The notes beneath the pieces are model-generated. The model did no database searches. It saw nothing but the letters and a program-made list of their open reading frames with translations, and had not been told where the DNA came from. From positions 3,348,001-3,412,000 of the forward strand of contig OZ374557.1 in assembly GCA_977862235.1 (NCBI GenBank): a stretch of DNA of 64,000 nt, written 5' to 3'. This document shows positions 6,118-41,777 of the stretch, piece by piece. Both the position numbers and the translations under genes were made by a program. Source of the DNA: Dudresnaya verticillata (taxonomy: Eukaryota). Each line of letters starts with the position of its first letter. The first letter of the stretch is position 1.

Positions 6118-6122
6118 TCTTT

Positions 6123-6140
6123 TGGTCTCCCGACCTAGAA
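6123..6140 (+). promoter_or_regulatory. Primer-binding site TGGTCTCCCGACCTAGAA (probably tRNA-Tyr)
   Basis: Starts with TGG 5 nt after the LTR; identical 18-mer next to the family F 5' LTR. Confidence 0.85.
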
Positions 6141-6265
6141 CACCGTCACGGTTGGAAGAAACAGCCGTCGAAATCCGCTACGGTAGGAATTCGGCTGTAC
6201 CGACAACCCGTTACGGAATATTGGATAGATAAGCAAGAACAACCGTTGTGTTCCGTTAAGGTATC

Positions 6266-10087: not shown

Positions 10088-10255
10088 CGGACGATTGAAA
10101 TGCTAGTGTGTGAATCGTACGATGTTTATCGCAAGCTAAGGTCGAGGCATATTTGAAACCGTTAAGGAGATCGTCGACCTGTAACTCTAAGAGTCACGAC
10201 GACGTCGCTTTGGAGCAGGGACAGCGGTATCTTCCTCGTTGCTCCCCTGACCCGT

Positions 10256-13028: not shown

Positions 13029-13162
13029 GGTGGGAGAAGCGCGCACGAAGGAGGAGGAAACGTTGAGGACGATACCCGTATCGGTTGTGTGTGGGTGTGG
13101 AAGCAAAGGTAATCCGTGACGGTGGGCGCCCGAGGACGTGGCGCCATTTAAGGAGGGGGGTC

Positions 13163-13837
13163 TGTGGTGAAGTGAGCCGTGGCGCGCATGCGGCACGCCG
13201 ACGGCGAGCCAACCGTAACGGGTGATGTGGCAATACGCCACGCTGATGATCTGGCAACGTGTAACCGTGTCGGATGTTGTGCGCATTGCTGTACGCTGGT
13301 ACGCATTGTTGTACAGTAGTGGAGCGCACCAACCGGAGCGGAGTATTTGTAGTATTTATTCTTTATTTTTAGTGAGTATCTGTACAGTATGTAGAGTAGT
13401 GCGCCAGCCAATGAGAATGCTGCGCATGTCCGTATCGGAGATTGGGACCAGCAGGGCCGATTCCACCATAGGACCAGACCACTAGGGTCTGGCCCCCACG
13501 GACCGGACCGCTCGGTGCCACCCTGACTTGTATATCAGGGCGGCACCGCAGCGGCTCCTAAGGTAAACGGGTAAGCAACCTTAGCCCAATCCTTTACGGG
13601 TTTCCCCGCGCCGAGCCCGTTGCGGTCTACCACCACCACCGTTACGGAGTCCGTCCCGGCACTTGTACCACCCCCTTGTCTGTTGCTTCCCAATATCCGT
13701 CTCGGTTAGCCGCTCGCTGTTCTCCCGCCTCGGTGCGAACTGTTCTACCACCCCGTGGAGGTAGTGTTGCTCTCGTCCTGTGAGGAAAGTCAGGCCAGCT
13801 GTCCGTCTCGGAGTTCGTGGGTTTTCACTACACCACA
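13163..13837 (+). repeat. 3' LTR, family A (675 bp), preceded by PPT
   Basis: PPT AAGGAGGGGGG at 13150-13160; TG...CA ends. Confidence 0.95.
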
Positions 13838-16301: not shown

Positions 16302-16976
16302 TGTGGTGGAGTGAAAACCCACGAACTCCGAGACGGACAGCTGGCCTGACTTTCCTTAACGGACGAGAGCAACACTACCTCCACGGGGTGGTAGAACAGT
16401 TCGCACCGAGACGGGAGAACAGCGAGCGGCTAACCGAGACGGATATTGGGAAGCAACAGACAAGGGGGTGGTACAAGTGCCGGGACGGACTCCGTAACGG
16501 TGGTGGTGGTAGACCGCAACGGGCTCGGCGCGGGGAAAACCGTAAAGGATTGGGATAAGGTTGCTTACCCGTTTACCTTAGGAGCCGCTGCGGTGCCGCC
16601 CTGATATACAAGTCAGGTTGGCACCGAGCGGTCCGGTCCGTGGGGGCCAGACCCTAGTGGTCTGGTCCTATGGTGGAATCGGCCCTGCTGGTCCCAATCT
16701 CCGACACGGACATGCGCAGCATTCTCATTGGCTGGCGCACTACTCTACATACTGTACAGATACTCACTAAAAATAAAGAATAAATACTACAAATACTCCG
16801 CTCCGGTTGGTGCGCTCCACTACTGTACAACAATGCGTACCAGCGTACAGCAATGCGCACAACATCCGACACGGTTACACGTTGCCAGATCATCAGCGTG
16901 GCGTATTGCCACATCACCCGTTACGGTTGGCTCGCCGTCGGCGTGTCGCGTGCGCGCCACGGCTCACTTCACCACA
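16302..16976 (-). repeat. 3' LTR, family A (675 bp)
   Basis: Reverse complement of the 13163 LTR; adjacent CCCCCCTCCTT is the PPT. Confidence 0.95.
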
Positions 16977-17110
16977 GACCCCCCTCCTTAAATGGCGCCA
17001 CGTCCTCGGGCGCCCACCGTCACGGATTACCTTTGCTTCCACACCCACACACAACCGATACGGGTATCGTCCTCAACGTTTCCTCCTCCTTCGTACGCGC
17101 TTCTCCCACC

Positions 17111-19810
17111 ATGTCAGGGGAGAAGAGCAAGCGCTCCCCGTCGCCCTTTCAACAGACACGGCGTTCCCGCGCGGCTTCCACGACTAGGGCTCAGGGCGCG
17201 CTAACCGTTACGGATGCTTCGACTCAAGCGCCGGCTTCTTTCTCGGCGGCAGCGACGTACCCGCAACGGGCGGTCGTACGAGCGGGGCCGTAACGGAACC
17301 TTCACCGGCTCCATCAGCGAGCCGAGGGTGGTCGGTCTATGATCCGAATCGGTTTGCTGCGAGCGCAGCCACAAGGACCGTGCTACCAGGGAGTGCAGCG
17401 ACCCACCGTGACGGAGAGGCGCCAATCAAGGACCGCGATGATGCGTTCCGTCGTGGTGCCGAGGAGCTCAGGTTGGCAGACCTAACGGCCATTCCGTTAC
17501 GGGCACCATCGACACCGGTATCGACGCCGAGTCGTAGGATGGTGTCTAGTACACATTCTTCCTCAAGTACACCGAGACGGATGCGTGGGCCCCCGCAAAT
17601 CAATCCACCTGCACCGGGGCCTTGGTGTCCGGCGGTGCATACCCGCGACGGAGAGGGCCCTGCCCCGAGTGGTTATTGGCCGGGGCACCACTTTGATCAT
17701 CGCGCGGGGCGCCCGGCTAGAACCGATGCGGAGAGGGCAAAGATTAAGCCGCCGATGACGGTGGACCTCTTCATTGAGAAATATCCAACCCTCTTGGAAA
17801 AAGAAGGTACAAGGCCGTCATGGCGCAACCCTTCAAGGCGAATCAACACATTGGCGTTGTTCCGAATCGGAGAGAATTTGTATGGCAAAGCCGATGGGTT
17901 CATGGCTATTGCCAAGCGCGGACCTCTACCGTTTCGGATTTGTTGTGGTATCGCTGCCATGGGGAGGTAGGATATACCGCAAAGGTGAGTCACCTGTTGG
18001 CCAAAGGTTTCCGTCTGCAGGGTGCGCCGGTCGGCGTGCAATTCATTTGCTTCGACCGCCCCTATGACCAGTCGGTATATTGGTTCCGCTATTCCAACGG
18101 GTGGAAGGACGATGCCGCAACGGGACACCGTTTGCGAACTCGATCCCGTGACGGAATGCGAGTTGGCTCACCAATCCTGCATACGTGGAACACTAAGGAG
18201 TTCTTCCACCTTCCGTATCGGGTGCGTCGTGAATTGTACCTTACAGCTCCGTCATGGTGGGAGCGTTATGAGGTGACCCGTTGGTTATCTGTCCCTACGC
18301 CTTCCGTCGTGGCATACTTCTCGGCGGACCTACTCACCGAACGGGAGTGGAACCACAAGCATCCGAACGGAGAGCGTCCCCCGAATCAAGATCAACTCGA
18401 TGTACTGTGGCGCATCTTCCGATCGGAATGGGCAATGCTGGTGCTCTTCTCGTGGCTCCAGGTGGCCTATTACGGAGTACGGTATAACACCAAGTTAGCC
18501 GACTGGCGATGCTTCCCACGGGATGAGGATGACCTGCCCGGAGGAGACTGTGGCCGTATTTTTCAACTTCCCGTAACGGTGATCGCCCTAATTCGCCAAG
18601 TCGGCGTACCCGATTTGGTGACGGGGTCGGCGTACCCTCTCCATCGGCTGGAGCGTCTTTTATCCGTACACGGAGAGCAGGATTGGCAACGCACTCCGGA
18701 CTTCTTGGGGTATGGTTGGGACGAAGACCGTGTCCTATCGGTGCCCCTGCTTAGGCCCGGAGTGGGTGAGCCATATTTCCTTCATCGAGAAGATCCGCGT
18801 CCGGAATGGCTGGCCTTAGAAGAGCAGGCCCATCGTGGCTATGCTTCTCGCTAAGCACCAAGGGATGCGTACCGTGATGGTTTGGACGGGGCTGAAGATT
18901 GGGGGAGCTGTCAGGAGGCAGCGGGGCGTACGCGTACAATCGACCCGCGCGATTCCGTTACGGTGAGACAGCAAGAGGCTGACCCCTTCTTGGAAGAATA
19001 GGTGGAGGTCATGGCCGTGGCCTCAATGGCAGCGGGTAGCGAGAAGACACCCGCTTCAATCCTTCCGGTGGTCGCGACACCCACGTCGCGCGATGTGGAT
19101 CGTGAGACTACTACTCCCGTATCGGATAAGGCCCCAACGCCCATGGGCGTGGTTGCGCCGACTATGGCGGTGCCCAAGCCTACGGCGCCATCCAAGAAGG
19201 GAGCCTCAAAGGAGCAGACCGTTTCGGAAGTGGCGCCGGATACTGTGCCGGCGGCACTGTCTCCTGCGACGCAAATGCCTGCCGCCGCTGAACCGCTCCC
19301 GCCAAGTGCTCCGCTGTTGGCGCCCACTCCCACACCAGCGGTGAGTGAGGCACCGATCACCGTATCGGAAGTGGGTCCAAAGCGCCAAAGTGTTGGGGAA
19401 ACTGGATACAAGCCCTCGGTCCCCGTGTCAAGTCCTGAACCGTTACGGAAAAGCGATATCGCCTCGCCAAAGAAGGATACGAATCCACCGTTGCGGAAGG
19501 ACGTACCTTCACCCGAGTCGGGACCATCCGTATTGGTGGTTTCCTCAACGGAGCATTCAATCGAAGCTGGGGCTAGGGATAAGCCGTCGATCGCCCCGAA
19601 GGTAGAGCTACGGAAAGTGGGTTACAGGTGCTACGGGGCATTTGTCGTACGCAGCGCTTCCCATTGCCAGGATCCGTTCAGGAAGTGCTAACCTTAGCGG
19701 AGGGGCTGATGGAACAGGTAATTCATCTCCGCGCAGTGGTCCGTCGTCAGCTTCGGCGCATGGATAGTGCGATTCGCGTCTTGGGACACAATACGCAGCG
19801 CGTATTCTGA
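17111..19810 (+). pseudogene. Antisense accessory ORF of family A, second copy (best-preserved domain 17820-18854)
   Basis: MSGEKSKRSPSPF start; 344-aa open stretch; stop at 17293, frameshift near 17800, low-complexity tail. Confidence 0.87.
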
Positions 19811-20012
19811 TCGGATTCGAGTGGGGAACCCGGCTTGCGAACGGGTCAGGGGAGCAACGAGGAAGATACAGTTGCCCCTGCCCCGAAGCGGCGTCGACGT
19901 AACTCTTAGAGTTACAGTGCGACGATCTCCTTAACGGTTTCCATTATGCCTCGATCTTAGCTTGCGATAAACATTGTGTGTTCTGCTCACACCCCAGCAC
20001 TCCAACTGTCCG

Positions 20013-23000
20013 TTACGGTGAGTGACGTGTTGGATTAGCACGTCGCCGTGGCTTACCCTTAGCGGATGTCTTTTTCTTTTGCTTCCAATATCGGTAGATG
20101 AAGTTCTGCGGTAACTCCTCCGCGGGCTCAAAAGTGTCCTGCTCCGGAGGGTATCCATACCAGCGGACTTTGTATGTCATCCCAGTAGGTTCGTCGCGGT
20201 GACCAACAATCTTGTCAATCACATATTCCGTATCGGCTTGCAGTTATTCCGTCCCGGAGGGGGTAGTACCTTCAGAAGGAGGTACTACTGTAGTACCTTC
20301 TGGATGTGGCACTACTTCTCCGTAAACGGTTGATGGCGTGACAGGCGGCACTGTCAAGGGTGCCGGCTGAACCGCAACTCCGATCGGAACCTTCGTGATG
20401 CGATCGATACTTACGGGAATCAATACCACTTCTTTTCGGATTGTAACAACATGTTCCGTTGCGGATTCCACTTCATAAGGCCCCGTGGCTCTCGGAAGGA
20501 GTTTCTTCACTTCCTGAGCCACCTCGCCCACATCATCCGGTTTGCCTTCCAATCGGTCCCGCTCACGGCGTTCGGCAGGCCGCAACTTATGGGGCGGCCG
20601 GTCGACATCGACTTGATCTCCGCTACGGATTATGGGCCTAAAGCGCAGCTTACAGTCAAACAGTGCCTTGGCTTTTTGTTGAACCACCGTCTGCTTAGTG
20701 CGCGCTGTCTGGAGCGCATACCTTAAACGGCGCACGGTGCTCCGCTTCTGTAACACCGGGGTCATACGCCCTTTCGCCAAATCAAATGGCGTTGTTTCCA
20801 TAATACGGTGTACCTGCATGTTGTACGCATATGTCAACGGTTGCAGGTACAGATCACAATCGGAGTGATGATCCTCAACGTAATGGCGCAAACGCTGAGC
20901 GATTGTCTTATTAAATCGCTCAGCTTGCCCATTTGTCTGCGGATGGTAGGCAGCGGTGAGCAGGTGCCTGACTCCGAGTAAGGAACACACCGCGTCGAAG
21001 AACTTAGCAGTAAACTGCGGTCCGTTATCGGTTAGGACAAATTGGGGTGCGCCGTAGGCGTACACCCAAAAGTCCAGGAAGGCGTTAGCCACCACAACGG
21101 CTGTTGTTGTCCGTAACGGAATACAGCGCGTCAATTTAGAGAACCGATCGGTTATTACCAAAACGTAGACATAACCCCGTTTTGTCTTCGGAAGTGGCCC
21201 GAGAATGTCGATAGCGACAAACTCCAAAGGTCCGCTAGCGGGGAAAAGTTTCACAAACCTTTGATTCCGAAAGCGGGTTCCCTTTGTCTTCACGCAGGAG
21301 CGACACGTCCGAACGGATTCAAATACATCGTTGGCCATATGAGGCCAATAATAATCCTGTCGGAGTGTATAATACATCTTAATTCCACCTGGGTGACCCG
21401 ACATCAGGGTGTAGTGGGATAAATACGATACCCGTCCACGGAGTTCGCTTGGCACCACCTTCTGTAGAGCACCATCCAATTGGGACTTGCGTACCAAGAA
21501 TCCGTTACGGTCATAGTCAAACTGTGATCCAGGGGAGCGTACCGTATCGGCTTTGAGACGACAGAAAGGGTCTCTGGCTTGCGCTTCGAGGAACTCCTCC
21601 CCGGTAATTGTCTCATCCTTAACGTCGGATTCTTGGATTACAGTAAACCGTGACGGTATTGCGTCGGGCTTGTCGGGGGAGGCGGATGTACTCCCACTGG
21701 CGGGCTCCACGGCGCATATTAGGTTATTTTCCGTAGCGGTTTCTCGTGATGTGGCCCAATCGGTTAAATAGACTCCATGCTCATATAATCCGTCGACGGT
21801 ATTTTCGGCGATAAAGCAGGGTATCTCTTCATCCAAAGGTCTATCGTCACCACCATCCGTTCGGAGTCGCGACATCCCATCGGCGAGTTGATGCTTAATT
21901 CCAGGACGGTATTGCACCTCAAATTCAAATTCCGATAGGCGGAGCCTCCACCTGGATAGGCGGCCAGATGAGTCTGCGAGGTTCAGGATCCACCGCAGGG
22001 CATCGTGATCCGTTCGGAGAATAAACTTGTCACCGTAAAGGTAGGGTCGGAGTGTTAACATGATCCAGACTACGGCTAAGCATTCCTTTTCGGTTGTCGT
22101 ATAATTTTTCTCCGCATCGGTGAGGCTTCGGCTCCAGTATCCAATAGGGAGGTGATCGCCATTCGGTTGTTCCTGCAGAAGGACACAGCCGACTTGATGG
22201 TCACATGCATCAGTGTCCAACGTATATTTATATCCGTGACGGGGTAGAGCCAATATAGTTGGAGAGATAAGGCGTCTCTTCAGTTCCTCGAAGGCTTCAT
22301 ATTCCGTATCGGGTAATATTCCAAACTCAAAGGGTGAGCCCTTGCCGGTTTTCTTATTCAGTGGTGCTGAAATCAGAGCGAAGTTGGGTACAAAGCGACG
22401 ATACACGTTGCACATTCCCAAGAAGGATCGCAATTCCGTTTGGTTAGTCGGCGGCTTCGCGACCTTAACGGATATTCCGATTATCCACTTCTAATTTTCC
22501 GGGACGGATAACATGCCCCAGGTATTGTACAGAAGAAGTCACAATTTGACAATTTCAACGTTACCCCAGCGGATCGTAAAAGTGTAAGGACTTCCTTCAG
22601 GTGGTGGAAATGTTCCGTAACGGTTTTTGAGTAGACAATTACATCGTCTAGGTAGACGAGGGCAAATTGCCATTTAACCGTAGAAAGGATTATATCCACT
22701 GCCCGTTGGAAGGTTGCCGGTGCATTTTTCAATCCGAATGGCATTCTCCGAAAACGGTATAAGCCAAAATGGCTAGTGAAGGTAGTTTTGTCCCTTTCCT
22801 CTTCCGGAATCTCGACTTGCCAATATCCGCTATTGCAATCAAGGGTGGTAAATACAGTAGCTTCCCCAAGGGAATCTATGCACTCATCCATCCTGGGCAA
22901 GGGATATGAGTCCCTAACCGTTACGGAATTGAGCCTTCTATAGTCAACACAGAACCGCATGGTGCCGTCCTTTTTTGGAACGAAAACCACGGGGCTGGCC

Positions 23001-23015
23001 CACTCCGATGAGGCT
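20013..23015 (-). pseudogene. pol: pol: RT, RNase H, integrase, chromodomain (frameshift and stop)
   Basis: CVDYRRLN, MPFGLKNAPATFQ, YLDD, RNase H and DDE motifs; frameshift near 22520; in-frame deletion after TPFDL relative to the copy at 7771. Confidence 0.95.
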
Positions 23016-23897
23016 TGTCGTGCAAACGTCGTATCGAAGACGGAGAACGCCTCCGGGCCGTTCGGGAGCCCGGTGGGTAGCCGCTAGTAGCGAACTGGGT
23101 AGAGCGGGTAGAACACGCCTAGGGCGGACTGTAAACACCCAGGGCGAGCGGACGAGGGGGCAAAGAAACCCAAAAGGAAACACGTTAGCAACGAGTAGGA
23201 ACGTGGAAACACGGATGGGTAGACGCTTATGCTTCCGGGCAGCGGTAGGGTGCGCGCTGTCGCGGAGGGGAAGTCTAGACTCAAACCGGCTTGCCGGGGC
23301 TTTACTGGTACGGCCTAGACGAGGTACCTAAGTAACACTATGGGGCCGCGGCGCGACGGCTGCATGACGTGGTGCGCGGGAACCCGGGACGCGTGTCGTC
23401 CCGAGGTACGTCTGACAATTGCTGTCGCCGTGCAGCCGCGTTGCTGACAAGCCCACTCGCCGCAGTCGTGCGCGTCCCCCACGTTGTTGCACGTGTGCGT
23501 AGGCGTTCGAACCGCACATAGGCGCGTAGTGTGATGTTGGATCTGGATACGCGATCCGGATCCTTGCCTGCCGCCTGCCTTACACCGTAGAAACTCTCAT
23601 AGCTTTACACCCCCCTGCTCCCGCGCGCTGGCCTTCCTTACAGCGCGCGACACGTGTTTGTCCAGCACACACGTGTGCCGGTGAGGCCGATCGCGATCCA
23701 TCGATCGTGCTCGGTCTGATGCACGTGGCCCCACTGTGCCCGCGCGCCAGTCAGGGTTGGCGGTTACAGTACGTGGGGCGGTGTGTTCGGGCGTCACTTG
23801 CCGCAAACGGGGTCAACACGCCGTTGGCGACGGTGGCCCGTCATAGACGGTATACACGCTCAAAGCGACTGTGCAGTCAGTGGCTCAATGCACCACA
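23016..23897 (-). repeat. 3' LTR, family F
   Basis: Direct repeat of 34874-35756; adjacent to PPT. Confidence 0.96.
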
Positions 23898-24279
23898 CCA
23901 CCCCCTTCTTAGACGCGAACACGCCTTCGGCTAGCCGCTCCTTATTGTTGACCGCCAACCGCTCACAGCGTTGCATCGTTCGACTGCCGTGCTTGCGTCG
24001 GGCCGTTTCTCACTCGCGTTTGGCGCACTGTATCCGCCGAGGGCGACCATCATCAACCTGTTTCGCCGCCACTGCCGGCAAAAGGCAAAAACCCCCGTCG
24101 GCGACGTTGTTCGGCGGAGAGCTGCCTCGCCTGAAGCGTGTCAATCGCGTGCGAAGTGCGCCGAACGTCCTAGACGTGAGCATCGAGTCCTCGTCGCTGA
24201 CGTGTGGTTGTGATCGTCTACGACGGTTGTGTTGACATCGCCCGTGGCGTGTGTGGAGTGTTACCGTCACTTTGACGTC

Positions 24280-26373
24280 ATGCCGCAGTACGATGGGGCG
24301 CGAGTCGCGCCCCCTTCGTCGATACCGGTGTACCCGTCTTTGTACGACTTTGTCGGAAAGAACCCCCGCGATCACGCGTACCTTTTCGCCCGAGCGCCTT
24401 GGTTCGATCCGGCCGCGCTTGGCAATGAGGCGCTCATCACTCACTACGCCATTGGCGGTATGCTACCAGGGGAACTCCCCCTGGCCGTCGTCTATTCCGC
24501 AGAGTGGAAGACCCGTTGCGCAATCCCCAAAACGTGGGTACGGGTGCACCCCGGCCAGTCGCTCGATGATGCGTATGCGCGATTCGTCTCCGACGTGCAT
24601 GGCCGCTTCTTGCGCTTCCCGGGGACCGACCTGGTCCCCCTATCGTTGGAATTGGACGCGGCCCATTTCCAAACGTACGGCGAGGCCGCTTATGGCTATC
24701 GAATCGCGGAGCTTCCGTTGACTCATATTCCTCCGTCTCTGGACGCACGCGTCCGAGACGATACTTTGGTGATGGGCGTACGCTTGCGAGCGGAGTTCCG
24801 TTACTTGCGTTGGGCCGGTACCTTCTATTGGGAAAGGTGCGTTCGGTGGGAGTGTGAGTCCCGGCGCCGCAAAGGTGTTCTGGTGCCGTACCAATACACA
24901 CAAATCGATCGCTTAGAGCGGGCCAAAGCACCGAATTGTTTCGTCAAACTGCCGCCGCAGTGGCGTGAGGTCGAGGTCTGCGAGAGCTTTGCTGTCGAGT
25001 TGCCTCCCGTCGTGACGTACTTGGGTTCGGAGCTCATGATAAACGCGTATTCGCGGTGGTGGGTCGTGTTCTACACGGAGTGGGCAGCCAACATCGCCTA
25101 CGCGTGGCTCTGGGAGGTGTATGATACCTTTCGGCTGTACCACCTCCCGCCGCGTGTTACTGCGTTCTTCAACGATTTGGATCTGACCGAGACACTCGGC
25201 GGGCAACGGAATCTCCGGGAGTTCTGGGACCTACGCCATGTGGCGGATGAGGTCGACTGGAACAACCCAGCCGTCGTTCCGTTGAGAAATAACCGCCGTA
25301 AGGCGAATCGTCCGCGCTTCGTGATGAGTAGGAACCACAACGCCTGCGGCGATTGGGTCTGGTATAATCCGTGGACCAAACGCCGCACGACGGAGAATAT
25401 CGCAGAACGCCACCGCAAGACGGACCGGTACGTCCCGACGGATTATCTCCGCGGCGCTTTGCCGAGTTGCGACGCTGACGGTGACGTTCCGCCGCACTTG
25501 AGCGCGCTTCTGGCCGAGGAAGATGCTCTTCACGCCTCGGGCGAACTTGCGAACACGTCTGGGACGGGCGTCGCGACCCCTATGACGGTTGACCCGGTGG
25601 CTGTTCCCGCTGAATCGCCCGTGGCGTCGGTTTCCTTGGCACCGCCTGGGCCCGTAGCCACGTCCGCGACGGTTGTTCCCATTCCTGAGGACACTCACGT
25701 CGCTGACGCCGATGGTGATGCCATTATGGCCGGTCCCGTACAAGCGCCGCCGGCGCCTCAGGCAACGATGGTATCGCAACTTCACGTCGGTGATGGGGCA
25801 GCGCCGTCCGCGGCCATGCCGGCCTAGACCTCCGCGCAGCGTGAAGTCGTTCTTTCGCTATTGCGCGCCGCTGGCATGGAGCCTCAGGACTCGAGCGGTT
25901 CGCCGTCAGACTGGTGGGCTCGCTGTTTAGCGACACTGCCGACTGCGGTGGGGGCGGGTGTGCAGACGTTATCGGCTTCTCCGGGTCTGTCGCTTTCCGG
26001 TGCTACCGCAGAGGAAACTCCGTCTGCGACGATCCCTCAACGCAGCGGGTCGCCGACGGCGAAGATAACTCCCATTGCGTCGGTGACGTCGGGCGCGCCC
26101 ATAGCGCCCACGGCGATTATTGCACAAGGAACGCCGGTGGCGGTTGCAGTGGCACAGGCGCCCGGGGCGATGGGGACAGACGGACCGATAGCGCCTAAGG
26201 CGGTTGCCTTGCGTTCGTCGCCGGTGGCGGCTAAGGGTGCGCTACTGCCGAAGTCGGCTGCGACTTCGTCGACGCCGAAGGCGGTTGAGGAGTCTGGCTC
26301 TCCGCTTCGGGCGTCCGTGATGGGGGCAACAGGGGCAGCTGCGGTGGCTGGGCCTTCGCGGCTCGTCCCGTAG
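24280..26373 (+). CDS. Antisense accessory ORF of family F (open to 25827; in-frame A/P-rich tail after one stop)
   Basis: ORF 24229..25827 is Trp-rich; LPPVVTYLGSEL...WWVVFYTEWA...LYHLPPRV aligns by eye with the family A domain. Confidence 0.8.
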
Positions 26374-27492
26374 CCGGCCGACCCGGCCCCAACGTCTCCG
26401 ACGAATGATGATGAGGGCTATGAGGCGGCGTTGCGCGAGTCGGCCGAGGACGGCGCTCCAGACAGGCCAGCGACGCCGCCAACGGTGGGGGAAGATTGAT
26501 ATCCCTCCTCCCTCAGTGTGGATGGGCGCGCGGGTGCGCTACGCGAGTCCGGTGGCCTTCCATAGGGAGTTCCCTGGGCGGGGAGAGTTAGGCGTCTTCG
26601 GACGGGTAGCAACATCGTCGTAGCGACGTGATTACGGTGGGCTGAGCAAGCGTCGACTTGACGTATGTACCCAGTAAACGTCGTCCGTTACTACCGTAGC
26701 TGCTCCACGAGCGCCATAATTTCGTTACCTTAACCGCTCGTGAGGTGACGGTGACCCGTCGATGACGCGAATAGAGTAGCGCGAACATCGGCGTGGGCTC
26801 CCCTTGGCGTTTAGCTGATCATCACGGGGGTCGTGCTCCCCTCCCTTTTGTTTTTTAATAGAGTCCCCGTCGTCTTTGTCGTAGGGATCCCGCGCGATTA
26901 GCACACCGTCGCGACGTTGTCGGAGAAGCCTCTTACCGGTCTGGGCGTCACTCGCCAGGGTCGCCGCTGGCAGCGATAGGGGTTGCCCAATTCCTTGGAG
27001 CCGCGTAACGCGTCGTGCACGCAATTCGTGATCGTGCCTACGGTGAACCTCGTCGCTGACGTCATCCCCAGATTCCCTTGGTCGTGGTTGTGCGGTCCCT
27101 TCGCGACGTGGTCGTTGGCTTGTCCTAGAGGGGCAGGCGTTGAGGTGGGATACGAAGCGCGATTGTCGGTCGTTCCCCCTTGGTGACGATAGTCTGTACG
27201 AGAGGCCGTTCGGGACGGTGTCGCCTTCCCTATACGGCTCCGTAGGCACCGCACCATAGTCGCGTACGGTGAGCCACTTGGCAGTACGGGGAGCTCTGCC
27301 TGCTGGTGGCGGAGTGGATTGTGTTTGGCGCCGTGCGTGCCCAGTACCGCGGTAGGTTCGAGTGGCGTGAGCGGTGTCAGCCACCTTGGCTGACAGTTGC
27401 GCCATAGGGTGCACCTATGAGGACCCATCCCGCGTGTGCTTCCGCCTTGGGCGTTTTGGGGCGCAAGCCCTTTCGTGGTCGGTCGTGACGTT

Positions 27493-30400
27493 TTACCCTA
27501 AACAAGCGTCGTCGATATTCGGTGGAGGGTCCGTTCGCTTTTGGCGGTGGTACCGCACGATATGCGAACGGGGCAGGTTCGACACCGGTTCCCACGTGTT
27601 CGCTGTGGCGGCGTATCCGAACCATTTCACGAAGTAGAGGATCTCTCCGTCATCTGCGAACGCGTGCTTCTCGATCCGATCGATGACGTACTCTCCTTCG
27701 CTGCCAGCGACTGGTTGCTTACGTTTCGCCTTGAGCGGGTCCTTCGGCTGCTTTGGTCCTTCGCCGTGGGCGCCCAACAGTCCTGCGAAGCGTACTTGAC
27801 GCAAAGATCGCCGTGGGCGAGCAGCGTCCCGTATAGCCGAGCGTACGCCTTCGGTGGGAGATGCGCTCGCTTCTGGCGTTTGCGCTGTCGACATGGTCGG
27901 GTTTTGCCCTTCGCTCCTTAGCGTAGCCTTGGTTACGTCGGTGGCGCTCTTAGTCGGCCCGACCGGCGGCGTATCCGGGGTATGCCTGGCGACGCCGAGT
28001 CGGGTGCGAACGCCTTGCGGTTGGTCGTCGTCTGAGACGGACTGCGATGACTCACTACCGGGCCCAGCCGCGAACGGAGCTAACTCGGCCAAGCCGCGAA
28101 CGGACGCCTGTGGCGAACGGTCGCCATGCATCTGTTGATCATTCCCATCCGGGGATGTCGTTGCAGCAGCGTTCGTCTCGTCGTTGACGACTCCTCGGTT
28201 TGGTGGCGCCCCATTAGACGGTGGACCCGCAGTCGTGGGGGTGTTGATTGCGACGTGACCCGGAGGAGTCGGCGCCCAAACCACGCGGTCCCTTGACAAG
28301 CGTTCGCGTTCGTTACGTCCTTTGTCGACGGTAATCGTACCGTCTTCGACGCTGATCACTCGGTAGGGCCCATCCGCCACTGGTGCCAACTTGTGATTGC
28401 GCTCCGCTTGATCCCTCGAGCTGCCTCTGGCGAAATACTCCTTACGTACAAATACGAAGTCTCCTGCGACAATCTTCTCGGCACACTTCCGTAGTCGGGC
28501 GTCGAAGTTTCGCTTATAGCGGGTTTGCGTTTGCGCCAAGGTCGCTGTTGCGGTACTCATCAATGCGGTCAGCCATGCCCTCCACTTCGTGTAGTATTGG
28601 CCGCCGGTGGGGACGCTTTCCAGCGACGGCTCCGCTTGGAGCGACAATGGGAGTGGGAGTCGGGAGAGTACCAGCTCGAACGGCGATAACTGTGTGGACG
28701 AGTGGATCTGCGTGTTATAACCGAAAGTCAACGCATCCGTGAACATATCCCAGTCGCGAGGGTGGTGTGCCATGTAGTGACGCAATGATGCGAGTATCGT
28801 CCGGTTAAACCGTTCCATCTGTCCATTACACTGGGGGTGATACGTCGTGGTGAAGAGATTCTCGACACCCAGTAGGCGACAGACGTCCTGGAATAGTTTG
28901 GCGACAAACTGTGGCCCATTATCTGATAGTAAGCGCTTCGGCGGACCATACACGAATACCCAATGTCGCACGAACGCTTTTGAGATTTCCAGAGCCGTAA
29001 CTGTACGCAAGGGTACCGTCCTGACCAGCTTCGAAAAGCGGTCGACGATTACAAGGAGAAACGTATTCCGCCTTTTGGTACATATGAGTTCTCCGAGTAT
29101 ATCGACACAGTCGAACTCAAGCGGCTCGGTAGCCGGGAACAACTTCATCGCCTTCACGTTCTTTCGTAACAGGACGCGGTTCTTCGCGCAGGTAACGCAA
29201 TTTCGAACCATTGCGTAACAATCTACCGTCATGGACGGCCAATAGAATTCGCGTCGGAGCGTCTGGTACAACTTCCTTCCTCCGGGGTGTGCCGCTAATT
29301 TAGCGTAATGCCTCAGGTGCAGGAGGCGTGCGCGTAACGCGAATGGTATAACGACTTGCGACCGGGCCTCCACGGTTCGTATGAGTCGCCCTTGTTCGCC
29401 CATCGCGAATGGTATCGACTTTCCGTCATCGAGACGCTTCCGAATTCCAGTACAGTACTCGTCGTTGGCTTGGGCATGGATCAGTTCTTCGTGCGTCACC
29501 TGACGTAGGAGCACCTCCTCCGGTGAAGGCGCGTTGGCAACGAGCAGCCGGTCGAATTCTTCGAACTCCCTTTCCACGAAGTCGACTTCGCCCTCGGTGC
29601 TGGTCACACCGTCGGTTGACGTCTGATGTTCGTCCTCGACGTGTTCCCCATGGTAGCACGGAACATCGTCGTCGATCGGTTCAACCGTCTCGCCATTCGT
29701 CTGTAGTCGTGACAGGGCGTCAGCCTGGGTATTCAAGTAACCATTCTTGTACTTAACGACGAAGTCGAAATCCGAAAGACGCAGTCGCCAGCTCATCAAA
29801 CGTCCCGAGGGGTCACTGATTTCCATCAGCCACCTCAGAGACGAGTGGTCCGTATGTACGGTGAACGACTCCATCTGGAGATACGGACGCAACGTTGTAA
29901 CGGACCACACTACTGCCAAGCACTCCTTCTCGGAGACGGAATAATTACGCTCTGGAGCGGTGAGTGAACGCGACCAGAAACCGAGCGGCTTCCGCTCCCC
30001 ATTGGGTTGCGTCTGGAAGAGAGCGCATCCGACTTGATATTCGCTGGCGTCACAATCGACGGAGTATTGTAAGCCTGGCTGTGGTAGCGCCAATACCGGC
30101 GGACTGGTTACGGCCTTGACGAGAGTGTCGAACGCGGGCGCTTTCCCTTCGTCAAAGGACGGTAGTGTGAACTCTTGCTCCTTTCGGAGCAACGTATTGA
30201 GGGGCGCAGCGACATGCGCGTAACGCGACACAAATCGTCTATAGACGTTGCACAACCCGAGGAAGCTGCGTAGCTCCTTCTGGTCCCGCGGGTGCTTGGC
30301 TTCGCGTAATGCGGCGGTCACCGTTCGGTCGACTTCCAATCTTCCTGGACGTATCACGTGTCCCAAGTAATTGACAGTCGGGGTGAAGAAGTCACACCTG

Positions 30401-32133
30401 GCCAGCTTCAAAGTGACCCCGGCTCGGTGGAGGGTTGACAGAATCTCGTCGACATGACGGAAATGCGTGTCCACGTCCTTGGAAAAGATAATAACGTCGT
30501 CCAAGTAGACGAGGCACGAACGCCACTTATACCCGGCGAGTAATATGTCGAGAGTCCGTTGAAACGTGGCCGGGGCGTTGGTCAACCCGAAAGGCATACT
30601 CTTATAGCGGAAGAGACCGGCGTGGCACGTGAATGCCGTCTTGTCGCGATCTCGCGGAGCAATTGGCACTTGCCAGTATCCGCTATTACAGTCTAGGGTA
30701 GTGAAGACATTAGCGTCCCCTAGACTGTCGATGCATTCGTCAATACGTGGTAACGGCTACGTATCCCGTATGCTTAGTGCGTTCAGTTGACGATAGTCTA
30801 CGCAAAAGCGGAGAGTGCCGTCCTTCTTTGGGGCGAAGACGACTGGCGACGCCCACGGCGATTGTGCGGGTTCGATAACCCCTTGACACAACATGCGGTC
30901 GACCTCCGCTTGAGCGAGCTGTCGTTGTTTCGGGCCAGCGCGATACGGCAGTGAAGAGATCGGGCGGGAGCCGGGGAGTAAGTCGATGTAATGCTCCGTG
31001 GTCGCTATTTCTCCTAGTGAGCCGTCCCACATTGATGAATAGCGGCGCAGCATCTCCTTCAACCGGCCTTGATGCTCGGCGGACAGATGACTCAAGTCCA
31101 AATCGTCGACTGACGGAGGCTTGGCGAGCGTCGCTTCGATAGACTTAGCGAAATTGTCCGGCTTTGTCGTGACGCCATCGTTCGTTTCAAAACGAAAGTC
31201 TTGCTTGGCTTCCTCATCCTGCGCTTGGTCTTCGGCGATACCCAATACATCGGCCAGACGTATGTGACTGGGGAACACTACTGTTGGATGTGGTAACGCC
31301 ATGGCAACGACCTGCCCCTTCGCGAGCGCTTGCGCCCGAGGCGAGAAGTTGGCGACTAGGATGCGGAACGTTTTGAGCGGCTCCACCTGGGCAATCTAGT
31401 TAGTAACGAGCATGCCTTGCCGATCATACATCGTTCCGAACGGCTGTATCGTCATCACTCCGGAACGCTCCGTGGTAACAGAGACCCACTTCTGCGCTTG
31501 AGGCGGGATGATGGTACGTTCGGTTGAACGAATCTGGGGCGAAGTCCTCCCTCCGGCTTGGCCGTACTCTTGCTCCGGTGGTAACGGCGGGTACGACGGC
31601 GGTCGACGAAGCGGGCGGCGTGTGATCGGGACTCGGGTCCCGTCGTCCAATTCAACCTCGCGACTTCGCGGATATATCGCTTCAACAAAGCGGTCGCAAA
31701 AGTCGCAACCGAGTATGACCGGCGCAGCGAGCCGTTCACATACGATTAATTCCAATTTAACGACCCGTCGTCCGAGACGTAGGACCAAGTCGATGGTTCC
31801 GCGCGTCTGTATTGCCTTATTGTTGGCGTCGGAGATAACGGGCAGGCTCTTGGCGACAATATGCGAACGCGCTTCGAGCGGGATCTCGTTAATACGGATG
31901 AAGTTAGGACCGGCCCCGGTGTCGAGGACAGTAAGTTTACGGGCCAAGGTATTGGTGGTGGTGCCAAGGTCGGCGTACACCTTGTAATTTCGCTTAGCCA
32001 TTACGAACAACTGTCCTCGCCCCTTCGGGGGCTGGTACCTACGCCATGGGCGTTTCAGCGACGTCTGCGACGGTTCTATTCGCCCTTCGGCGTCTTCCTT
32101 AAGGGATTTCGGGCCCTCCTTCCGTGTCAACAC
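27493..32133 (-). pseudogene. pol: pol: protease, RT, RNase H, integrase, chromodomain; two in-frame stops
   Basis: LDTGAG; YLDD; VDCDAS; HHCC and DDE; GPY; YVIDRIEKH...VKWFGY; stops at 31396 and 30757. Confidence 0.96.
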
Positions 32134-32191
32134 CCGAGGCGGGGGCCTCTCGTTGGGTGTGACACCCCAGTGTCAGGAGTCGGTGCCCGGA

Positions 32192-34747
32192 TTAGTTTTT
32201 CGCCTCCGGCGGTGGTTGCGCTATGTAGCGGTTTAGCATCGTCTGATGGCGTTCGGCTGCGCGCGGTGCAAGTCCCGCCCTTGGCGATGGTGAACGCGCG
32301 GCGCGACGGGCTGCTTCCTTCGTGGCTTGTTCCTTACAACGGTGGTACGCATCGGCGGGTACTCCGTTCCTCTCGGTCTCCGTCAGGCCCTCGTAGTTGG
32401 CGACGACCTTCATGAAGTCACTCATTCGCAAGAAGCATTCCGGCGCAATGTGGCCGCGCGCATAGCACTGATGGCAAATAAGTTGTCGCCGTACGTCTTG
32501 ACGAGGAGGTCCTCGGTCCTGCCATCCGGGCCTTGCGCGGTGAACATGCGGGGCGTATTCTGAATATGGTACGCGCGGCGCGGGTACGTTCGAGCGCCCA
32601 AAGGCGAGGGCGGGGTCCATTTCTTCTTCGTCTCCGACGTAACTGTCCGTCGGCAATGCCGACGTTGGTATCGAGAGTTGTTCGTCGGCTAGGTACAAGT
32701 CTCCCTCGGCGTGCGTTTCGACATCATCGTCGCGGTGGCTAACGTCTCGGAATTCGACGGATGACTCCGCCAGCATGGCGCGTGCCGCCGGCTTTGGACT
32801 CTTCGTCGGTTGACGGTTGACTTCGACAGCGGGTCGTGCGTCGCGGGCGAGTTGTGTCGGCACCAATATATCCTGGCGACCCGAAGTCTGCCCGGCCCTG
32901 CCGTGTCGCGCGCGATGCGCGTCGCCCTCGTCTTGTGCGAAGTGCACCAATCGTTCGAACGATAACTCCGCCCTTGGCGTCTCTTCGCGGAAGCGGGCAA
33001 CCAGCGATCGTATCGACGGATCAAGACCGTCGATGAATAGGGTCATCTTCTCACAGTCAGGGTACACGTTACCGCAACGGATGCACTTTCCAGCGAGTCG
33101 CATGCCGTAGGCAGTTTCATCTTCGGACCGCTTCTGTGCTGTTGAGCGTAAAGTCAGTACGGCGGATCGAATCGCCGAAGGCGTTGCATACGTACGGAGG
33201 AGGTATTGTACCGCCTCCGGGTATGAGGAGACCCCGCCTTGATGGCGTGTTGACGTCGACTTGACGGACCGGAACTGCGTCGACGCTGTACCTCGTAAGA
33301 AGTATGGCAGCGCTATGAACGCTTGAGCTTCGCTCATTTCTAGAGTATCGGCCTCATCCGCGAAACGCGTAAGGAACTCGAGGATCAGGACCGGGTCGTC
33401 GCCCGTGAAGGCGGCGTCCTTCATCGTCAACTCTAGACGTTTGATGTGCTCCTTGACCTTCCCGGTTTCATGTCCGGAACGTTTTTGCCCTACGTTCGTC
33501 AGACGGTAAGTACGATACGAAAAGAGTCGATCGAATAGGGGGTTGGAGGGACGTAGCTCCTTCAATCCATTGAACCGTTTGCCGCGTGGCCTTACGGCCC
33601 CGCCGTGGGTTGGATACTCTTCGTCATCAGTTGAAGTACCTGACGATTCTCCGTCACTCGACGAGTCGGAGGAAGATGAGGACTCTCCGTGACGTCGTCG
33701 ACGGTTCTTCTTTCGCTCATGGCGTTTCTTTCGCTGGTCGCGATGCTTGCGACCTTTTCGGCGACGATCTTCGTCGTCGCTTTCGTCCTCAGATGATGGT
33801 GGTTGTCTTTGACGCAACTTAGCGAATTCCAATCGTTCCAAACGAGTCGCCAGGCGATTGAAACGCTCGCGCGAACTCAGTTCGGACTGCGAGTTGATCG
33901 TTACTGTAGCGGGTTGCTTGGCGTTGGTATCCGGGTTCGTCATCAGACGGTCAAGGTCATCTCGTAAGCCCTGTAGGGCTCCGTCTCGGCCCTCCTCTAG
34001 CGTCTGTAGACGACTGCAGATTCCGCCGACACTATTGTCGAGCATCTCCGCGAATCGCGCTAACAACGCATCGTCCTCAATGACGCAAACTTCTCGGATG
34101 CGGTCGCGTGGAATCGTGAGATTACCCACGCGAGCGGACGCAGGAGACGCTGCGGGCGAAGGTCGTGTTGGGCTCTGTCCCACCGGGCTTTGCCGCACCG
34201 GTGACGACTCTACGTTGCCTCGGTGACCAGACGGCTCTGCCGGAGAACATTCGGCACTGCCGTGGGGTGTGGGACAACAGTCCCTCGCAGGTGGGGAATC
34301 GTCCACGACGTCCAGAGGCTCTAAGCGGCTTCGATCGTCCTCGACGTTTCCGGTTGGTAGTTATTGTTGTGGCTGTGAAGCCGGGGTTGGTTGTTGTTGT
34401 TCCTCGGCAAGGCCGGCTTGTGTTCCGTCTACGACGCGTTGTTGCTCCGCCTGGACGGTGTCAGCGGAGTCAACGTAGGTGTGGTAGGTACGGAGGGCGG
34501 AGCCTTCCGGGACTGAAGTACGGACGACGATCGGATTCGGCGGGGGATCAGGTTGTCCCCTGTTCAGCGAAGCGTGTGACACGTCATGGTCCGGTGGTGC
34601 CGTAAAGGCTGAAGCAATCGCCGGGCTGACGTGACGACCAGATCGCGTCGTCATGGGTTGGGCCGGTCCCGACGGTGGCATTGTGCCGGGCGTCGAAGAC
34701 GGGCGTCGGGAGGATCCACGCGATAGCGGTGGTCGCGGTGGACCCAT
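32192..34747 (-). pseudogene. gag: gag with CCHC zinc knuckle; one in-frame stop at 34361
   Basis: CHQCYARGHIAPEC; starts ~105 nt after the PBS. Confidence 0.9.
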
Positions 34748-34853
34748 GATAGTTTCAAAGAGGTAGGCGAACGTCGTGAACGATGGGCAGAACGTCAGGG
34801 TGACGGTTAAGCGATCGTCTCACAGACGTTGAAGTTCGTAGATACGTAGCAGC

Positions 34854-34871
34854 TTCTAGGTCGGGAGACCA
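34854..34871 (-). promoter_or_regulatory. Primer-binding site (same 18-mer as family A)
   Basis: Reverse complement is TGGTCTCCCGACCTAGAA, 2 nt from the LTR. Confidence 0.88.
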
Positions 34872-34873
34872 GT

Positions 34874-35756
34874 TGTCGTGCAAACGTCGTATCGAAGACG
34901 GAGAACGCCTCCGGGCCGTTCGGGAGCCCGGTGGGTAGCCGCTAGTAGCGAACTGGGTAGAGCGGGTAGAACACGCCTAGGGCGGACTGTAAACACCCAG
35001 GGCGAGCGGACGAGGGGGCAAAGAAACCCAAAAGGAAACACGTTAGCAACGAGTAGGAACGTGGAAACACGGATGGGTAGACGCTTATGCTTCCGGGCAG
35101 CGGTAGGGTGCGCGCTGTCGCGGAGGGGAAGTCTAGACTCAAACCGGCTTGCCGGGGCTTTACTGGTACGGCCTAGACGAGGTACCTAAGTAACACTATG
35201 GGGCCGCGGCGCGACGGCTGCATGACGTGGTGCGCGGGAACCCGGGACGCGTGTCGTCCCGAGGTACGTCTGACAATTGCTGTCGCCGTGCAGCCGCGTT
35301 GCTGACAAGCCCACTCGCCGCAGTCGTGCGCGTTCCCCACGTTGTTACACGTGTGCGTAGGCGTGCGAACCGCACATAGGCGCGTAGTGTGATGGTGGAT
35401 CTGGATACGCGATCCGGATCCTTGCCTGCCGCCTGCCTTACACCGTAGAAACTCTCATAGCCTTACACCCCCCCTGCTCCCGCGCGCTGGCCTTCCTTAC
35501 AGCGCGCGACACGTGTTTGTCCAGCACACACGTGTGCCGGTGAGGCCGATCGCGATCCGTCGATCGTGCTCGGTCTGATGCACGTGGCCCCACTGTGCCC
35601 GCGCGCCCGTCAGGGTTGGCGGTTACAGTACGTGGGGCGGTGTGTTCGGGCGCCACTTGCCGCAAACGGGGTCAACACGCCGTTGGCGAAAGTGGCCCGT
35701 CATAGACGGCATACACGCTCAAAGCGACTGTACGGTCAGTGGCTCAATGCACCACA
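34874..35756 (-). repeat. 5' LTR, family F
   Basis: Direct repeat of 23016-23897; followed by TSD AGGCT. Confidence 0.96.
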
Positions 35757-36868
35757 AGGCTGGTTCAATTACCTTAGCGGAAAGCATGCGATCGATCTCT
35801 GTCTTTTCGAGATCTCGCTGCTTATGTCCGGCACGGTATGGGGCTTGATATACTGGCTTCGCTCCGGGAGTTAACTCGATGCGGTGCTTGGCAGCTGTAA
35901 TGTTGCCAAGATCGCCACTCCACATCGACTTATATTCCTCGAGTAGGGTTAAAATCCGTTTACGGAGCGATGCTTCTTCTGTGCCGATCTGGACTTGATC
36001 CTTCCAGTCGGTAGTATTTGTATTTTCCGTTACGGGTTTGCTTACTTCCTTGTCGTGAGGGGAGATGCTGCTGGCCTTTTCGGAGGTAGGGTTAGAATTA
36101 AATGATTGAGTAATTCCTCCCCCCTTAAATGGAGGTATACCGTCAACGGTAAAAATAGCAGAAGGGGCAGCAGTAGCAAGGCCCACAACAGTAGATTTGG
36201 GCAACCGTACCGGCTTGTTAGAAAAATTAGAGACCCAGATCCGAAACGGTTTGTTAGGTACAACATCCATAATACCATTAGCCATTAACGTAAGATGCTT
36301 AAAAGCCGGCTTAGGATGATTTTGTAGAAAGCATACCCCACCCGTGGGGTATTAACCGTTACGGAGGTTTGAGTCATAGGGGGAATAAGGGTAGATCTTG
36401 CTAAACGAATTTTCTGAGAAACCGTAGCGGTGGATAGAGATGAGGGCTGTAGGGTTGTGGCGTTATCCGTCTTCGGATTTTTGGCTTGACCAACAAATGA
36501 TACCGGTGGGTAATGATGAAAAACAACTTTCCGTAACGGAGGGAGGATTGCCTTCACGTAGCGGTCGATGAAGGTAGTTCCCAAAATACAGGGAGCCGCC
36601 AAGTTCGCGACCACTAGAAAATGGACGCGAGCACGGAGCTCTCCGATACGGACGAAAAGTTGGATCTGACCAAGAGGGTGTATAGCGCGATTAGACGCAT
36701 CCCGTAATGGAGGACTGGCTGCTGGGCGTATGAGTGGGAGCCATTGGCGCGGAAGGCGCCTGGCACTAATGAGATTGGGCCCAGCGCCAGAGTCCAAGAC
36801 GGAGATTAAAGGAAGCATCACGCTATCTGTCCGTCCCACGGTAATTTGCATCTTGTAAGATTCCACCA
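35757..36868 (-). pseudogene. pol: Aspartic protease and RT N-terminus of the interrupted family A element
   Basis: LDSGAGPNLI; HRIEL..PVYQAPYR..VIEPA rejoins 23015; frameshift near 36330. Confidence 0.9.
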
Positions 36869-37237
36869 CAGGACCAGACCACTAGGGTCTGGCCCCCACG
36901 GACCGGACCGCTCGGTGCCACCCTGACTTGTATATCAGGGCGGCACCGCAGCGGCTCCTAAGGTAAACGGGTAAGCAACCTTAGCCCAATCCTTTACGGT
37001 TTTCCCCGCGCCGAGCCCGTTGTGGTCTACCACCACCACCGTTACGGAGTCCATCCCGGCACTTGTACCACCCCCTTGTCTGTTGCTTCCCAATATCCGT
37101 CTCGGTTAGCCGATCGCTGTTCTCCCGCCTCGGTGCGAACTGCTCTACCACCCCGTGGAGGTAGTGTTGCTCTCGTCCGTTAAGGAAAGTCAGGCCAGCT
37201 GTCCGTCTCGGAGTTCGTGGGTTTTCAACACACCACA
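36859..37237 (+). repeat. Partial family A LTR (3' ~380 bp)
   Basis: Matches the distal part of family A LTRs; ends CACCACA followed by TAGCC. Confidence 0.93.
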
Positions 37238-37708
37238 TAGCCTCTGCACCCGCCGTTTAGCGATCGAGACGGCGCTCTTCAATGGCTAGGCGTCGGTCTT
37301 CGCGTGCCGCTGCTGCCAGTAACGCCTCACTACGAGCGCGCTCGCCACTTTCAAGTGCGCTTATTGCAGCTCCTCGATCCCTGCCGCGTTCTGTTACGAC
37401 GACGCGACGCTTCTTAGAAGGCGTTTCCACTGGGCTGTCGTCTTTCGCCTCTGGTGTTGCGTTCCGCGCCGCATGTCGGTTAAGCGCCATTTACCGAACG
37501 GCAGTACCAGCGCCTAACAGCAGCTCTGCCTTGTTTTCCTTCTCCTTAAGGGCTTCTTCTTGTTCCAACTTATGCGCATCCATCTCCTCCCTGATATCGC
37601 TGCACAACCGTTCGAACTCCCGGAATTCCTCCCCACCACCTGACGCAGCAGCCCGGGTGCTGGCCTGCGGATTTCATTTGTCCATCAGCAGCTTAAATCG
37701 GTCGCGAC

Positions 37709-38308: not shown

Positions 38309-38315
38309 GCGATAG

Positions 38316-41662: not shown

Positions 41663-41690
41663 GGTAGATATTGCTGTGCTTTGTGCGCTT

Positions 41691-41776: not shown

Positions 41777-41777
<1 letters not shown>

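Follow-up and report, generated by a model that had tools for sequence, protein, structure and literature searches.

Element F, a full-length Ty3/gypsy long terminal repeat (LTR) retrotransposon of Dudresnaya verticillata, carries 112 mini-hairpins of the form CG-XY-NNN-Y'X'-CG, distributed from LTR to LTR. It lies in a 64-kb window (contig OZ374557.1, positions 3,348,001 to 3,412,000; coordinates below count from the first letter of this window) made up of nested Ty3/gypsy elements flanked by intron-poor host genes with Myb and kinase domains (Pfam), and it is inserted in the pol of an element of a second family, A, which bears a tag of its own. The arms of the F hairpins covary, the sites stop at the ends of the element, they exceed what the encoded proteins account for and they show symmetry between strands; furthermore, F belongs to a clade with a conserved open reading frame (ORF) placed antisense to pol (aORF). 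We propose tentatively, and at somewhat short of an even chance, that the aORF protein binds these tags on the DNA of its own family, in the manner of VANC, keeping copies active or protecting their complementary DNA (cDNA).

A sequence-only reading of the window had singled out one palindrome, CGTC-NNN-GACG, and the 25 positions it listed are all exact matches (25/25). The window contains 30 copies, 29 of them in F; those absent from the list lie at 25661 and 29227, inside the range it had covered, at 23839 and 35698, one in each F LTR, and at 41052, in host DNA. The excess it had reported holds (27 copies in the F internal region), although its chance expectation of well under 1 was slightly understated, being 1.0 under an order-1 and 1.6 under an order-3 Markov background, the latter reaching a maximum of 5 in 100 simulations; Markov backgrounds thus do not explain the counts. 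The switch of motif at the insertion boundaries is also real, but these boundaries are the LTR ends, at 23016 and 35756, and not 23900 and 34800. CGTC-NNN-GACG is absent from the family-A DNA at 1925-23009, which has 48 copies of CCGT-N-ACGG, and the latter is absent from F, so that the two motifs are far from similarly frequent in the two families. As had been suggested, the motif is a property of the element rather than of the locus, with 8.8 sites per kb from LTR to LTR in F and 0.45 per kb elsewhere. Four copies do stand upstream of the aORF start codon at 24280, but they are neither special nor the densest cluster, since there are seven members of the class in the 382 nt before this ATG and 19 in 873 nt of the 3' part of the aORF.

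Where that reading fell short was in taking CGTC-NNN-GACG as the motif of F, because it makes up only about a quarter (28/106) of a covarying class of 4-bp hairpins, which makes the F tag unlike the A tag in kind and not merely in its letters. We tabulated every CG-XY-NNN-ZW-CG site in one LTR plus the internal region of F. The inner letters were complementary in 106 of 254 CG-N7-CG sites, against 22.5 expected with independent arms and 11.6 under an order-3 Markov model, the most frequent stem types being TC (28), CC (27), GC (10), CG (9), CT (9) and AC (7). Among CG-X-C sites, the diagonal cells of the table contained 7, 27, 10 and 28 sites and the off-diagonal cells never more than three. 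CGCC-NNN-GGCG, with 25 copies against 1.2 expected, matches the CGTC type in frequency, whereas the hybrid CGTC-NNN-GGCG is at chance level (2 versus 2.9), and we therefore rejected a degenerate consensus CGYC-NNN-GRCG. Pairing within a strand can generate such a table and independent half-sites cannot, indicating a 4-bp stem with a 3-nt loop instead of a consensus of two half-sites.

Loops of 2, 4, 5 and 6 nt showed a weaker excess (21, 38, 24 and 20 sites, respectively, versus 10-12), and loops of 1 and 7 nt showed none in F. The base of the stem is fixed, with CG in 55 of 61 outer-paired sites, and among stems with a 3-nt loop, those lacking the initial CG show no enrichment. Stems of 4 bp (110, 38.7 expected) and 5 bp (32, 10 expected) are in excess but those of 6 bp are not (2 versus 2.6), and only 18 of 106 sites add a further pair beyond the CG. 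The covariation, together with this tolerance of loop length, suggests that the F sites likely fold as mini-hairpins.

Most of the sites (81/106) lie inside open frames; they are self-complementary and their flanks are unrelated to one another. We compared hairpin numbers with those in synonymous-codon shuffles for the aORF core (11 versus 2.1) and tail (19 versus 3.8), the region from reverse transcriptase (RT) to chromodomain (23 versus 4.5), the protease region (8 versus 1.1) and gag (20 versus 3.9). The excess was five- to sevenfold in all five coding stretches, and none of 300 shuffles per stretch reached the observed number, so codon or amino-acid bias was rejected as the source of the hairpins. 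Gaps of 11-17 nt between successive sites are scarce (1 versus 8.2, P 0.001) and those of 18-27 nt are common (23 versus 10.6), a spacing like that of a protein footprint, with ranges that were picked, here and for family A, after inspection of the data. No clear 10-bp phase was found among the sites. Beyond the TAG taken as the end of the aORF, the low-complexity codons at 25998-26273 carry hairpins at 27-nt steps (six gaps of 27), which suggests old 9-codon repeats with one tag each.

The tag of family A, CCG-NNN-CGG, behaves differently: its inner and flanking positions are independent between arms, and spacers of 2, 3 and 4 nt occur 25, 145 and 26 times, a symmetric tolerance. It exceeds synonymous shuffles in all four ORFs examined (4/4), and gaps of 9-17 nt between successive sites are again scarce (1 versus 5.0 and 1 versus 4.0). 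Family A would thus be a code hardened into a fixed palindrome. Neither the A nor the F tag is enriched in the host genes of the window. A degraded element, B (47500-51200), whose LTR is about 67% like that of family A, shares the A tag (CCG-NNN-CGG 14 versus 2.8), and the A and B aORFs, the latter in pieces, are 52-57% identical; the F aORF, with a different tag, is only about 20% identical. A third family appears to be present at 1-1924, where the near-palindrome CTC-N-GAG occurs eight times in 1924 nt (0.9 expected), mostly as CCTC(G/C)GAGG and also at 3223 and 3259; an ORF there (115-1836, minus strand) weakly resembles the core of the aORF (hhalign probability 5, E 0.008).

Tags of family A and of families related to F are under purifying selection. 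Between the two family-A copies, motif bases differed at 4/153 and 5/150 positions, compared with 44/357 and 42/350 in other CCG/CGG (Fisher p 2e-4 and 1e-3). In three hairpin-rich families related to F, stem bases change at about 0.6-0.75 times the rate of other bases. Compensated stems, set against stems broken by one change per arm, amounted to 86 versus 265, 20 versus 108 and 124 versus 254 in these families and to 12 versus 147 and 0 versus 37 in the two control families, all of them pairwise, non-independent counts among related copies. Most stem losses between copies were due to one change, and two changes on the same arm were less frequent (163 per 1184 single changes) than in a control family (140 per 563); the predominance of single changes speaks against fold-back mutation. 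The two LTRs of F differ at 14 positions, too few for a selection test.

F, A and 46 of 79 related metagenome loci, many of the others being cut short, share a conserved ORF that lies downstream of pol, ahead of the 3' LTR, in antisense orientation; no aORF match was found in 63 distant Ty3 loci, about 20 of which reach at least 3 kb past pol. The F aORF comprises a folded core of about 380 aa, rich in arginine and aromatic residues, followed by a low-complexity tail, and its frame stays open for 181 further codons past the TAG (25828-26373), whose similarity to the tails of relatives is not significant. It has three near relatives, at 32-37% identity. An alignment restricted to F-type aORFs matches the A aORF (hhalign probability 95.8, E 7.9e-9), and a profile made from F plus rows from two other families of the window retrieved 1,212 representatives at E<=0.001. 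Structure predictions were confident (predicted local distance difference test, pLDDT, 88.1 for a 427-aa model and 94.7 for a 176-aa core) and consisted largely of helices, Arg, Glu and aromatic positions being conserved, among them a basic helix at 182-198. The 427-aa model had no match at E<=0.001 in Foldseek searches of PDB and viral structures (VIA best Z 2.9), the fold search with the core model gave no match either (best Z 2.9), and ESM Atlas yielded no usable aORF match; this lack of fold matches is no evidence that the fold is different or new. Scans of viral contigs with the aORF, the F pol and the pol alignment, and of metagenomes with the aORF alignment, returned no matches. A weak profile match to UHRF1 (E 0.02) was rejected as chance, the core model being helical and no UHRF1 chain appearing among the fold matches listed, and one-member Pfam matches to MBD, TraD and peptidase M91 (E 0.003-0.005) were disregarded.

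A search with a pol alignment yielded the 79 metagenome loci, most of them 41-53% identical, and a second set of 79 loci on contigs from prokaryote bins, five of which were dropped as too short. Many of these bacterial- or archaeal-bin contigs (L080-L090, L092-L158) are eukaryotic Ty3/gypsy DNA contaminating the bins. For F the hairpin ratio, defined as observed over expected 4-bp hairpins with loops of 3-6 nt, is 1.77, and three related families of 10, 8 and 7 loci range over 2.2-3.1, 1.8-2.9 and 2.4-2.8, respectively; of 11 close loci in the second set, 7 reached at least 2.0, and the 63 distant Ty3 loci had a median of 1.08 and a maximum of 1.50. In L068, a locus unrelated to that of F, the excess likewise ends at the LTR (ratio 1.0 outside, 2.2-2.7 inside). 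Codes differ among families: in L082 and L087 the 4-bp stems are anchored by C and carry tetraloops (CTC-N6-GAG 22 versus 2.0 and 25 versus 2.6), their inner letters covary, and TGAA and TTCA are both common among the loops; the L052 family has C-G-closed tetraloops, GNRA-rich on both strands; and the L068 family has CCC..GGG stems. The excess ends at stems of 4-5 bp in F, L001, L082 and L087, and L002, L083, L086 and L088 prefer 6-8 bp, longer than F; stem length itself is family-specific. L006 has no generic excess but a fixed palindrome, CGC-NNN-GCG (14 versus 3.1; as CGCC-N-GGCG, 9 versus 0.3; two of the sites being LTR duplicates), which resembles the mode of family A.

Strand symmetry, the lack of a G-U excess, the folding model and GNA loops are our basis for preferring DNA over RNA as the acting molecule. 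Among one-mismatch stems on the sense strand of F, G-T (12 versus 8.4) and A-C (20 versus 12.6) were far behind Watson-Crick stems (106 versus 11), and mirrored loop and flank columns did not differ between strands (p 0.12-0.82). The loop is closed by C in 72 of 106 sites, and d(GNA) loops with a C-G closing pair, d(cGNAg), are described as unusually stable in DNA in the part of the literature available to us (PMC3201870). The median predicted local pairing was 0.39/0.34 for DNA and 0.014/0.013 for RNA, a gap that reflects the energy sets, since swapped flanks gave the same values. A search of 23000-35800 against Rfam gave no match at the gathering score. The F sites would accordingly be expected to act as DNA on both strands, with a sense-strand bias in some loops that leaves RNA open.

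Under the self-recognition reading, the aORF would be expressed from a transcript that starts antisense in the 3' LTR, which likely holds an antisense promoter, and its protein would be the tag reader, recognizing folded sites in F and a duplex palindrome in A. Each family would then recognize, and protect or activate, its own copies only, with escape from host silencing as the outcome; alternatively, the same reader might coat the cDNA to guide it or to block self-integration. In a bolder form, which we regard as rather unlikely, a red-algal clade of retrotransposons would practise self-recognition through a protein of new fold that reads DNA shape, extruding or capturing 4-bp hairpins on both strands, and every family would recode its anchors, the length of its loops or a fixed palindrome across hundreds of synonymous positions over its whole genome.

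Several observations weigh against these proposals. By themselves, 4-bp hairpins do not come out of the duplex, and the flanks are not tuned for folding, an idea that we tested and rejected. GNA loops in F are enriched on the sense strand (11/72 versus 4.8, p 0.008) and not on the antisense strand (4 versus 4.1), and GNRA loops in L052 number 16 versus 4.7 and 9 versus 4.6, respectively, both of which RNA could also explain. The scarcity of short gaps is missing in all four generic-hairpin loci (4/4). The evidence for selection comes from family A and related families, not from F itself, and one of the two control families also had somewhat slower 'stems'. Because Gag, RT and integrase likewise diverge from family to family, the co-variation of tags cannot single out the aORF, and no Pfam family or recognized nucleic-acid-binding domain was found in the aORF. 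Finally, aORF-bearing families of 15, 8 and 2 loci (median ratios 1.06, 1.01 and 0.86) and several singletons lack the hairpin excess; ten tree representatives of these relatives form one clade (support 1.0), in which no substitute motif was detected, CGAGGA-type words having been rejected when their significance fell to about p 1e-3 under synonymous control. This clade keeps the aORF, and the protein thus does not imply the tag.

The hairpins could instead act in RNA, where Gag/nucleocapsid or a Rev-like aORF product would read them as dispersed, family-specific signals for packaging, dimerization or export. Sites do span the whole transcribed unit, coding regions included, F gag has a CCHC knuckle, C-G closing and GNRA loops are more enriched on the sense strand in one related family, and dispersed stem-loop packaging signals exist in single-stranded RNA (ssRNA) viruses. 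We nevertheless consider it unlikely, because a sense G-U excess is missing in F (1.04) and most hairpin-rich families, L068 being the exception (1.30 versus 1.15), UNCG loops are not enriched, and reverse-complement loops are balanced (TGAA 9/TTCA 6 in L087, TTA 6/TAA 9 in A). Moreover, the predicted RNA pairing is negligible and the densest F block folds like its shuffles (z -0.54), so that general RNA structure was rejected.

There may also be no dedicated reader, the hairpins forming in single-stranded DNA (ssDNA) during reverse transcription or transcription and helping it passively, by shielding bases from a host enzyme that edits or cuts ssDNA, or hindering the annealing of sense and antisense strands. 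Strand symmetry, stems restricted to Watson-Crick pairs and C-G closing would suit hairpins that must be stable on either single strand, the stems of several families are generic and lack a strong sequence anchor, and the clade that lacks the excess retains the aORF. However, stability as such predicts longer stems than those of 4-5 bp at which the excess ends in F, L001, L082 and L087, and it fails to explain the fixed CG base in F, the C of L082 and L087, CCG-NNN-CGG in A or the sharp differences between neighbours in the same genome; we find this option improbable as well.

A host protein, such as a transcription factor, a CpG reader or a chromatin factor, might read the sites, each family having adapted to a different one. 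The A tag, with its independent arms and its acceptance of spacers of 2 and 4 nt, does look like a dimeric duplex-binding site, and all three tags of the window contain, or often contain, CG. This leaves the covariation in F unexplained, the host genes of the window are enriched for neither tag, and the tags shift between families faster than expected of host factors, making the hypothesis a rather poor candidate.

Fold-back copying by reverse transcriptase, which would leave short inverted repeats devoid of function, would account for stems of Watson-Crick pairs only, for stable closing pairs and for differences between families. It is largely refuted by the slower substitution in stems and has little probability left: tags change less than the background, most losses involve a single change, with same-arm double changes rarer than in the control family, stems do not extend outward, and the fixed motif of A could not be produced in this way. 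Least probable of all, F sites that never fold but are duplex sites for a symmetric dimer with co-switching halves, or for several paralogous dimers, would agree with strand symmetry, spacing exclusion and the likeness to A, but at least six stem types (TC, CC, GC, CT, CG, AC) and four loop lengths covary, and hybrids, through which one type would have to turn into another, occur no more often than by chance (2).

Element F has the features of a Ty3/gypsy element, namely direct LTRs (98.4% identical), TG..CA ends, a target-site duplication, a stretch like a primer-binding site (PBS), a polypurine tract and the expected pol order, which by Pfam is RT, RNase H, integrase and chromodomain, with the protease, read from the translation, upstream. 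In this copy pol is broken by in-frame TAG codons at 31396-31398 and 30757-30759. The F pol clusters with a Chondrus crispus protein (FastTree, 43 rows, support 0.987) at 49% identity, which points to a red seaweed as the likely host. The gag-like ORF had no Pfam match, and its CCHC knuckle was read from the translation.

Features of element F and of the surrounding family-A DNA (coordinates within the window).
Feature	Position	Strand	Remarks
Family A elements, left flank	1925..23010	.	tag CCG-NNN-CGG 145 versus 16 expected
Family A antisense ORF	17188..18854	+	split over two frames in this copy; remote homologue of the F aORF
Target-site duplication AGGCT, 5 bp	left copy 23011..23015, right copy 35757-35761	.	
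Element F, full-length Ty3/gypsy with chromodomain integrase	23016..35756	-	LTR pair, TG..CA ends, target duplication, Pfam domains
F 3' LTR	23016..23897	-	6 triloop hairpins, including CGTC-ATA-GACG at 23839
Leader of antisense ORF	23898..24279	+	7 triloop hairpins in 382 nt: 4 CGTC, 2 CGCC, 1 other
Polypurine tract adjoining F 3' LTR	23901..23910	-	
Antisense ORF (aORF), 515 aa, ATG to TAG	24280..25827	+	between pol and 3' LTR
F pol: protease, RT, RNase H, integrase, chromodomain	27493..32172	-	31 triloop hairpins in coding stretches
Gag-like ORF with CCHC knuckle	32192..34360	-	frame differs from pol; 20 triloop hairpins
PBS-like stretch, begins TGG	34855..34871	-	2 nt inside 5' LTR
F 5' LTR	34874..35756	-	6 triloop hairpins, including CGTC-ATA-GACG at 35698
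Family A DNA right of F	35762..37240	.	CCG-NNN-CGG 13 versus 1.0 expected

The family-A copies around F (5538-23010 and 35762-37240) are rearranged: in one, gag is fused directly to the RNase H region, the protease and most of RT being absent, and in the other the protease region meets an LTR piece of opposite orientation at about 36859. Both family-A aORF copies are broken. A further repeat family is present as fragments at 37708-39007, 46430-47029 and 51453-52755, with copies 88-93% identical and no palindrome excess detected. The host genes, at 40214-43574 and 53233-56574, encode a Myb-domain protein, a kinase whose translation appears to resemble SR-protein kinases, and a long kinase ORF; no exact-sequence match to the host-gene proteins was found in the protein collection searched. 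At 57081-57582, a unit of about 250 nt is present twice in tandem, the copies being 81% identical.

Irrespective of who reads them, selection favouring a 4-bp hairpin roughly every 110 nt over gag, pol and LTRs, with a code that switches between families, is an extra layer of information in the coding sequence of a retrotransposon. If shape reading is true, it would be a structure-encoded family barcode without a described counterpart and might offer a programmable reader of short palindromes; in addition, the aORF proteins form a family of more than 1,200 clusters with a confident model and no structural match. The window brings together two homologous but diverged proteins, two sharply different candidate codes and built-in controls (perfect, hybrid and compensated sites), which makes the question directly testable in vitro. 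In the full-text literature searched, whose coverage excludes most subscription journals, we found no description of dispersed family-specific retrotransposon hairpins or of the aORF protein.

Packaging signals of ssRNA viruses are degenerate short stem-loops throughout a coding genome, with strand-specific RNA loops that have a loop consensus. F resembles them in its many dispersed stem-loops and differs in that its loops are nearly free and strand-symmetric. Bacterial REP sequences and their partner TnpA-REP/RAYT offer an analogy for hairpin reading, as many short DNA stem-loops whose folded form is bound by a mobile-element protein; in the account available to us, REPs are extragenic and chromosome-wide and the partner is a nuclease related to IS200/IS605 (PMC3479197). 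Unlike REPs, the F hairpins are 11-12 nt long, are not copies of one another, are confined to the element and lie within codons, and no IS200/IS605-type match was among the Pfam and fold matches listed for the aORF.

Antisense ORFs between pol and the 3' LTR are known from the plant Ty3/gypsy elements Grande (gene23), RIRE2 and Retand (TRP28), which are like that of F in position, orientation and conservation over copies, and for which a nuclear or DNA-binding role has been suggested; the excerpts available mention no dispersed cognate motifs and treat the function of antisense ORFs in LTR retrotransposons as an open question (PMC7264820, PMC11963269). Retand is described there as a non-chromovirus, whereas F has a chromodomain integrase and groups with the Chondrus crispus element, and Pfam found no TRP28/PF04195 match in the F aORF or the 85 core sequences. 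The silencing of abundant retrotransposons in red seaweeds has been described, in the portion available, as unexplored (10.1101/2025.02.11.637652).

The closest likeness is to the VANC anti-silencing proteins of VANDAL transposons in Arabidopsis, according to the parts available of a report in which both binding and anti-silencing were shown (PMC5735166). There too, a transposon accessory protein is accompanied by dense, family-specific short motifs that differ between sister families. VANDALs, however, are Mutator-like DNA transposons and F is an LTR retrotransposon, for which binding and anti-silencing are here inferred only; Pfam and fold searches with the F aORF gave no match, and no direct sequence comparison with VANC was made. 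The VANC motifs (YAGTATTAY, AGTTGTCC/AGTTGTAC) are described in the same report as non-palindromic, in a single orientation, mainly non-coding and spread by tandem repeats, whereas F has self-complementary motifs that point changes have scattered over coding sequence and that are partly defined by structure. On the favoured reading, F would be a variant of transposon self-recognition, and would become categorically new if shape reading were confirmed.

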